Positions 12,787 through 13,607 of a stretch of DNA of 64,000 nt are shown here, one piece after another. The notes under the pieces are model-generated. The model was not told the origin of the DNA. It saw nothing but the letters and a program-made list of their open reading frames with translations, and did no database searches. The stretch is from the sequence record OL960577.1, one strand, 5' to 3'. This stretch comes from Escherichia phage vB_EcoM_SA35RD. The position numbers and the translations under genes were made by a program. The number at the start of each line of letters is the position of its first letter. Position 1 is the first letter of the stretch.

Positions 12787-13074
12787 TTACAGAAGAGTTT
12801 TTGCAATAATTTTAAGCTGAGCTACAGAAATGTGCTTAGTTTTAAACAGTGCAGTCTCTTCAGCCGGAGAGATAACAATAGTAGCGCCATCTTTCTTAGC
12901 AGACCATCCATCCCCTAAGTAAACAGTACCTTTTACTTCTTCGCCGTCAACCAGACTAATCATTGGTTTACCCTCACGTCCTTTATTTGCTTTAATAACT
13001 TCGGAAGTAAGGGTTGCTTCGGTTAGAGTAGAAACGTTAGCATCAGGTGATATAAATTCTTTATAGGTTTTCAT
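12787..13074 (-). CDS. ipI: internal protein I-like (CTS-bearing), 95 aa
   Basis: Starts MKTYKEFIS; sits immediately downstream of 57B as ipI does in T4; promoter at 13109..13138. Confidence 0.6.
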   Translation of the reverse strand: MKTYKEFISPDANVSTLTEATLTSEVIKANKGREGKPMISLVDGEEVKGTVYLGDGWSAKKDGATIVISPAEETALFKTKHISVAQLKIIAKTLL

Positions 13075-13108
13075 TTTATTTCCTTGAGGTCGTTTATTTG
13101 ATAGGATG

Positions 13109-13138
13109 ATAGTAACACGTCATCATCCTTATGTAAAC
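13109..13138 (-). promoter_or_regulatory. early promoter cassette (PeSL-like) upstream of the ipI-like gene
   Basis: -35 GTTTAC, 18 bp, -10 TACTAT; inverted repeat GGATGAT/ATCATCC. Confidence 0.5.
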
Positions 13139-13151
13139 TGTTTTGTGAAAA

Positions 13152-13607
13152 TTATTTTAGATCTTCGGCCCAATCTAGTTTTAAGGGTTCTTTGTATTCA
13201 CGGTCGAGAATAACCGGAATAGCTACATCACCACTGAATGATAGTTGGCCAACGTTATATGATAACGTTATATGTGGAGTGTAGTCGTCGAAATCATGAG
13301 TAGCACCTAAAGCCCGTGCATACTGATGACGACATCTAAGATATTCGGAATCAAGAACTAAAACCAGTACAGCGCCGTCGTCAGTTTTCCATACCTCAAA
13401 GTGTCCTGATTCGGCAATAGAATAACTACCACTGGATGTAGTATATGGTATGTTTACACGTGAATAACAAATTGTTGAATGAAGCTTTTCACGTGGTACT
13501 GGATTAGGAATTCTTAATTTGCGCTGGAGGTCTTCCAGCGCATCAAGTGTTAATTCCGAAAATTTAGCTGCGACGTAGAGGCCTTGTGAAAAGTCCTCAA
13601 ATTTCAT
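13152..13607 (-). CDS. 57B: 2H phosphoesterase, T4 57B / Acb1-like (anti-CBASS phosphodiesterase)
   Basis: 151 aa; two H-x-T/S-x motifs (LHSTICY, PHITLSY); synteny 1-57A-57B-ipI. Confidence 0.75.

Follow-up and report, generated by a model that had tools for sequence, protein, structure and literature searches.

Predicted Acb1 (57B) and internal protein I (ipI) genes of an RB69-like T-even phage segment follow the conserved T4 gene order

Experimental work on T4-type phages has characterised the closest relatives of the two genes described here. Using activity-guided fractionation, Hobbs et al. identified T4 57B as Acb1, an anti-CBASS enzyme that degrades 3'3'-cGAMP (PMC9117128), and T4 without 57B becomes sensitive to CBASS (PMC9117128; PMC11722364). 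The residues on which Acb1 function depends comprise an HxT/HxT tetrad, a set of stacking aromatics and the adenine-specific E141, while residues 145-152 in T4/FBB1 numbering form a C-terminal lid (PMC9117128). Internal protein I (IPI) is present in about 360 copies in the T4 head, from which it is injected and inhibits CT596-type GmrSD (PMC4437046; PMC12373910). T4 IPI stops the GmrSD enzymes of CT596 and Eco94, and an ip1 deletion phage is restricted >10^6-fold (PMC4437046); the specificity of Ip1 has been described as GmrSD-CT596 (PMC12373910). For RB69, Thomas et al. reported an IPI that differs from T4 IPI in four residues and protects RB69 from GmrSD-type restriction (PMC6024577). DNA of the RB69 type carries arabinosyl-hmC and not glucosyl-hmC, but is still attacked by the CT596 GmrSD, while the UTI89 GmrSD restricts RB69 and not T4 (PMC6024577). 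In addition, Arbiol et al. 2010 (PMC2839356) and Comeau et al. 2014 (PMC4122927) described cassette boundaries of T4-type phages that consist of an early promoter combined with a stem-loop (PeSL), for which the promoter consensus is TTTACW-N17-TAYWAT (PMC4122927).

Against this background we analysed positions 12787-13607 of a 64,000-nucleotide stretch of phage DNA, hereafter referred to as the window. The interval is fully occupied by two minus-strand ORFs with a spacer of 77 bp, and the coordinates given for them in an earlier note proved exact (Table 1). The genes are arranged in the order gene 1, 57A, 57B, ipI and tRNA.4, which is also the order in T4 and RB69, and ipI is followed by homologues of tRNA.4, tRNA.3 and tRNA.2 and then by the tRNA genes Arg-UCU and Met-CAU. 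A 2.6-kb query around 57B and ipI matched 314 phage records in all and showed 98.2% nucleotide identity to Mosigvirus genomes (vB_Eco_mar005P1, JN02, TU01 and others). The T4/RB69 gene order together with this identity led to the conclusion that the window is, as judged from its sequence, a segment of an RB69-like T-even phage of the genus Mosigvirus. The locus 57B/ipI/tRNA.4 was found in the same order in T4, RB27, UFV10, TU01, mar005P1 and PhAPEC2. As a side observation, the window and RB69 have two tRNA genes only, in contrast to T4, which carries an eight-tRNA cluster and segB at the corresponding place.

Table 1. Features in and around the 57B/ipI interval, with positions in the window.
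Feature	Position	Strand	Description
57B (acb1)	13152-13607	-	151 aa; predicted anti-CBASS 2H phosphodiesterase by family match
ipI	12787-13074	-	95-aa precursor of internal protein I, predicted injected inhibitor of GmrSD-type Type IV restriction
ipI propeptide	13018-13074	-	codons 1-19, MKTYKEFISPDANVSTLTE; putative capsid-targeting part, ends L-x-E (L-T-E)
Mature IPI*	12790-13017	-	codons 20-95; 76 aa, predicted 8.07 kDa, pI 9.0
57A	13607-13837	-	tail-fibre chaperone; Pfam GP57 at 5.9e-23
Gene 1	13842-14576	-	dNMP kinase, upstream of 57A
Putative PeSL-type motif upstream of ipI	13103-13138	-	GTTTACA-N17-TACTAT (13138-13109), overlaps a 9-bp-stem hairpin (13129-13103)
Putative PeSL-type motif downstream of ipI, upstream of tRNA.4	12745-12783	-	GTTTACA-N17-TATAGT (12783-12754), overlaps an 11-bp-stem hairpin (12772-12745)
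T4-type late-promoter consensus	14192-14199	-	TATAAATA, inside gene 1
tRNA genes Arg-UCU and Met-CAU	11123-11199 and 11206-11279	-	

Overall, the segment almost certainly represents an RB69-like T-even piece with two independent and already characterised counter-defence genes, Acb1 and IPI. All sequence-level hallmarks of membership were found for both proteins, and the sequences examined yielded no evidence against the explanation as Acb1 plus IPI. Both genes are already known, and those in the window are ordinary RB69-type copies with the anatomy seen in T4 and RB69; identical or near-identical copies are deposited and annotated in more than 100 phage genomes. The sequence data establish family membership, synteny, purifying selection and the conservation of functional residues and of the processing site, and from the experiments on T4, FBB1 and RB69 we infer that catalysis by Acb1, packaging of IPI and inhibition of GmrSD would also take place in the phage from which the window derives. 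An intact gene for an anti-CBASS nuclease beside an intact gene for an anti-GmrSD inhibitor is relevant to host-range prediction, although the practical value is small and the locus opens no new question.

The assignment of 57B to Acb1, a 2H-fold cyclic-oligonucleotide phosphodiesterase with predicted activity, is unambiguous at the level of sequence. All 144 positions of the Pfam PF23474 (Acb1) profile are matched, with E 1.8e-58 and 196.8 bits where the cut-off is 27, and residues 9-148 align to the crystallised FBB1 Acb1 (PDB 7T26/7T27; chain 7T26_A) with an E value of 7.9e-59, an alignment of ungapped quality from which the 2H phosphoesterase fold of 57B is predicted. Together with the corresponding match of IPI described below, this direct sequence agreement with proteins of solved structure (E 8e-59; 2e-41 for IPI) settles the fold and family of both proteins. 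The protein shows 85% identity to T4 57B (NP_049750.1), and the dN/dS of the gene relative to T4 is 0.07. Both H-x-T/S motifs that the earlier note had recognised are present as H43-S-T45 and H112-I-T114 and line up with the tetrad responsible for catalysis in T4 and FBB1 Acb1. In an alignment of 7 phages from the 4 genera Mosigvirus, Tequatrovirus, Dhakavirus and Moonvirus, the residues Y11, H43, T45, W73, F106, H112, T114, E140 and W146 are invariant; in the published T4/FBB1 numbering, which runs one ahead of that of the window, they correspond to Y12, H44, T46, W74, F107, H113, T115, E141 and W147. The description of 57B as an Acb1-like 2H phosphodiesterase was thereby borne out by the family match, the identity to T4 and the invariance of the functional residues, and the proposed alignments to T4 Acb1 and T4 IPI, once run, gave a match for both proteins with the catalytic histidine motifs in register.

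Compared with the 152 aa of T4 Acb1, the window protein has 151 and is missing the N-terminal residue; the two are separated by 22 substitutions (23 differences when the absent N-terminal Met is counted), none of which affects a published functional position. The tetrad, the base-stacking aromatics, the adenine-reading Glu and the lid are alike in both, the C-terminal lid reading LDWAEDLK in the window and LDWADDLK in T4, with E for D as its only change. The gene also occupies the same place as in T4, downstream of 57A and overlapping it, the stop codon of 57A and the start codon of 57B sharing one base (TAATG). Copies of the RB69 group are identical or 99% identical to that of the window; in all, 117 phage records contain a 57B at least 99% identical, some of them 100%, and identical proteins include those of phages LF82-2 and ECO26.1 3-1. 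By homology, the enzyme would be a metal-independent 2H phosphodiesterase made after infection, with a lid expected to shut over CBASS signals in the form of adenosine-containing cyclic di- and trinucleotides. Y11, W73, F106 and W146 would stack the bases and E140 would read the adenine, while the H43/T45/H112/T114 tetrad would cut 3' of adenosine, passing through a 2',3'-cyclic phosphate intermediate. Hydrolysis of the CBASS messengers should then leave the effector inactive; this chemistry and its outcome for CBASS are taken from PMC9117128.

For the downstream gene, the earlier note had spoken of an "ipI-like" injected protein. The family was named correctly but the relationship was understated, as the gene is, by all sequence comparisons made here, IPI proper. 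Residues 20-95 span the entire 76-position profile of Pfam PF11634 (IPI_T4), for which the cut-off is 25 bits and the score 167.6 bits (E 5.8e-50), and the protein was assigned to phrog_4363, an internal virion protein. The same residues 20-95 align without gaps to residues 1-76 of the T4 IPI* chain (PDB 2JUB, 2JUB_A; E 2.2e-41), 71 of 76 being identical, and 75 of 76 are shared with RB69 IPI*; for the whole precursor the identities are 87% to T4 IpI and 98% to RB69 IpI. T4 IPI (NP_049749.1) has the same layout as the window protein, a 95-aa precursor divided at x-T-E|A into a propeptide of 19 aa and a mature part of 76 aa, as does RB69 IpI (AAP76054.1), and both phages share with the window the locus between 57B and tRNA.4, in RB69 with an extra gene inserted. 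As a separate observation, the GenBank annotation of RB69 ipI (2489-2788 of locus L002) wrongly places the start four codons upstream of the conserved one (MEPKMKTYKEF...), which in RB69 is the ATG at position 2501 of L002 and matches window and T4.

The targeting sequence with which the gene had been said to open is indeed present, the N-terminus MKTYKEFIS... fitting the internal-protein targeting pattern MKT[YF]xEF. The processing junction reads MKTYKEFISPDANVSTLTE|ATLTSEV in the window and MKTFKEFTSTTTPVSTITE|ATLTSEV in T4, so that the propeptide ends in L-T-E|A in the former and I-T-E|A (...STITE|A) in the latter. Comparison of the precursor N-termini of window and T4 therefore reveals that the x-T-E|A site and the targeting sequence are kept, and by analogy the prohead protease probably cleaves window IPI after L-T-E. 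According to this model, the 19 N-terminal residues would direct the IPI precursor into the prohead, where the prohead protease would trim it after L-T-E; the basic 76-residue IPI* would then be packaged, injected with the DNA and expected to block the CT596-type GmrSD, a Type IV enzyme that would otherwise cut sugar-modified hmC DNA.

Although the earlier note suggested that the mature part departs from T4 IPI, this is where ipI is most constrained. Of the 12 differences to T4 IpI, 7 fall within the 19 residues of the propeptide, and dN/dS values relative to T4 (Nei-Gojobori) are 0.039 for mature IPI* (dS 0.75) and 0.24 for the propeptide. The claimed divergence of the mature protein is therefore wrong, given the 71/76 identity, the concentration of differences in the propeptide and the low dN/dS. 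The five changes in the mature protein are I28V, A60T, A65V, H67Q and N74T (mature numbering), of which I28V, A65V, H67Q and N74T are common to RB69 and window IPI* and fit the "four residues" reported for RB69 (PMC6024577), while A60T occurs, among these aligned sequences, in the window only. Window and RB69 IpI accordingly differ solely in V11D, a propeptide change, and A79T (A60T when counted from the start of IPI*). A60T was absent from the five other Mosigvirus IPIs aligned; since distant Dhakavirus and Moonvirus homologues have T in this column, the position looks tolerant of change. Relatives of IPI were drawn from an annotated phage collection, in which the best match was 98.9% identical and none reached 100%, and a search of viral contigs in IMG/VR for IPI gave 104 pattern matches, 0 of which were confirmed by tblastn. 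We also note that between Mosigvirus and Tequatrovirus mature IPI* exhibits unusually strong purifying selection, unlike the arms-race signature expected of an anti-restriction protein; that the constraint (dN/dS 0.04) extends from one genus to the other is a small and mildly counter-intuitive observation for a counter-defence protein.

Inspection of the regions flanking ipI revealed a PeSL-type motif on either side (Table 1). The upstream hairpin folds at -11.2 kcal/mol (z -2.6) and the downstream hairpin (repeat I11) at -18.4 kcal/mol (z -4.9). While the upstream early-promoter-like element agrees exactly with the PeSL consensus, TATAGT of the downstream copy departs from the published -10 consensus by one mismatch; in both, a putative early promoter overlaps a hairpin and borders a non-essential gene with a variable neighbourhood, as at the PeSL boundaries described. 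The window contains 7 occurrences of GTTTACA-N15-19-TAYWRT, all on the minus strand, where 0.23 would be expected, and T4 has PeSL-type motifs at the same two positions around ipI, with different stem sequences. These features mark ipI as a cassette of its own, with a putative PeSL-type promoter/stem-loop at each end. A near-identical copy of the downstream motif (GTTTACAACAAGATAGGGCTATGTTATAGT) is found on the minus strand at 5860-5831, a distance of 6.9 kb. Directly upstream of ipI no late-promoter consensus was found, the nearest on this strand being that inside gene 1; it is the closest candidate promoter upstream from which a late transcript could run through 57A, 57B and ipI, and came from a pattern search that returned 19 matches in the window against 7.8 expected.

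The conserved T4 arrangement invites the alternative that 57B and ipI belong to a single anti-defence operon or island under common regulation, in which adjacency is functional. Both genes act in counter-defence and lie on one strand 77 bp apart, and their adjacency is maintained in Tequatrovirus, most Mosigvirus, Dhakavirus and Moonvirus genomes. However, 57B is translationally coupled to 57A, which encodes the tail-fibre chaperone, and not to ipI, and the products of 57B and ipI act by unrelated mechanisms and at different times, IPI being injected from the virion and Acb1 expressed after infection. In addition, a promoter-plus-hairpin motif sits between the two genes, and a gene is inserted there in RB69 and a small ORF in CLB_P2. 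The single-operon reading, which we regard as very improbable, was dropped because of the intervening promoter/hairpin and the RB69 insertion. The adjacency is inherited, conserved T4 gene order with no special coupling, and the "pair" of the earlier note dissolves into this order, with ipI having its own promoter/stem-loop motifs on both sides. Even less credible is the proposal that 57B acts as a LigT-type (2'-5' RNA ligase) RNA ligase or RNA-repair enzyme and not as an anti-CBASS nuclease, to which we attach next to no probability. It would agree with the description of phrog_755, the family of 57B, as "RNA ligase", with the RefSeq product names and with a weak match to Pfam 2_5_RNA_ligase2 (E 0.012). 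This match reaches 16 bits, below the threshold of 27, compared with 197 bits for Acb1, and the proposal was dropped on these grounds; moreover, T4 57B has been demonstrated experimentally to degrade 3'3'-cGAMP, and T4 becomes vulnerable to CBASS when it is deleted (PMC9117128; PMC11722364), and window 57B keeps all residues specific for cyclic-nucleotide binding. The "RNA ligase" label is an inherited annotation that goes back to the common 2H fold. Within PHROGs (phrog_755) and many RefSeq/GenBank records, 57B/Acb1 appears as "RNA ligase" or hypothetical protein and in few as phosphodiesterase, and the PHROGs/RefSeq name should be changed from "RNA ligase" to Acb1.

With 57B as Acb1 and ipI as a gene of its own, the remaining alternative concerns the target range of IPI, for which an altered restriction-inhibition specificity had been considered earlier. 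It could be argued that the RB69-type changes together with A60T retune window IPI to other GmrSD enzymes or to those directed at arabinosyl-hmC, as mature IPI* has five substitutions relative to T4, one of which, A60T, is missing from the other sampled Mosigviruses, and each internal protein acts strictly on its cognate GmrSD (PMC12373910). The sensitivity of RB69 to the UTI89 GmrSD could likewise stem from the IPI differences or from ara-hmC, either of which could be the cause (PMC6024577). On the other hand, the mature protein is free of indels and 93% identical to T4 IPI* (99% to RB69), with a dN/dS of 0.04, the opposite of an arms-race signature, and all but one of the five changes are conservative (I/V, A/T, A/V, N/T). 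The T found at the A60 column in distant Dhakavirus and Moonvirus again suggests a tolerated position, and RB69 IPI reportedly protects against the same enzyme family (PMC6024577). Given the strong purifying selection and the conservative changes, we consider a shift in target range unlikely, and the suggested change in specificity finds no support in these comparisons. Slightly less probable still is that RB69-type IPI* with A60T has a GmrSD spectrum unlike that of T4, perhaps fitted to arabinosyl-hmC-attacking enzymes; if true, this would help to explain the different responses of the RB69 group and T4 to the UTI89 GmrSD. T4 DNA carries glucosyl-hmC whereas that of the phage group to which the window belongs carries arabinosyl-hmC (PMC6024577), and this modification together with the sensitivity of RB69 to the UTI89 GmrSD means that the in vivo protection spectrum of window IPI may differ from that of T4 IPI.

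Comparison of related genomes further identified the ipI locus as a hotspot of gene gain and loss, the corresponding junctions in the window being 13075-13151 and 12737-12786. In RB69, 57B and ipI are separated by RB69ORF156c, an additional gene for an Ip7-like internal protein (2128-2454 of L002); its product starts with MKTYQEFIAE..., belongs to phrog_2667 and has copies at least 90% identical in 27 phage records. In LF82-1, an Ip7-like gene follows ipI (1852-2160 of locus L004), and the small ORF between 57B and ipI in CLB_P2 spans 1246-1422 of locus L009. Extra genes of the RB69, LF82-1 and CLB_P2 types are absent from both ipI junctions of the window. The presence or absence of additional ip genes in RB69 and LF82-1 suggests recombination at the PeSL-type sites around ipI, and the variability of the locus matches the descriptions in the PeSL papers (PMC2839356; PMC4122927).

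Elsewhere in the window, four more minus-strand ORFs with a capsid-targeting-like N-terminus were observed at 152-466, 1269-1550, 9910-10374 and 1-126, one of these N-termini reading MKTYQEFITE; no assigned target was found for these ORFs. The ORF at 1-126 is cut by the window start, and the library scan covered the other three, for which it gave no Pfam match and assignments to phrog_3966 (unknown function), phrog_3499 (internal head protein) and phrog_2280 (unknown function). All four internal-protein-like ORFs are candidates for further injected anti-defence proteins.
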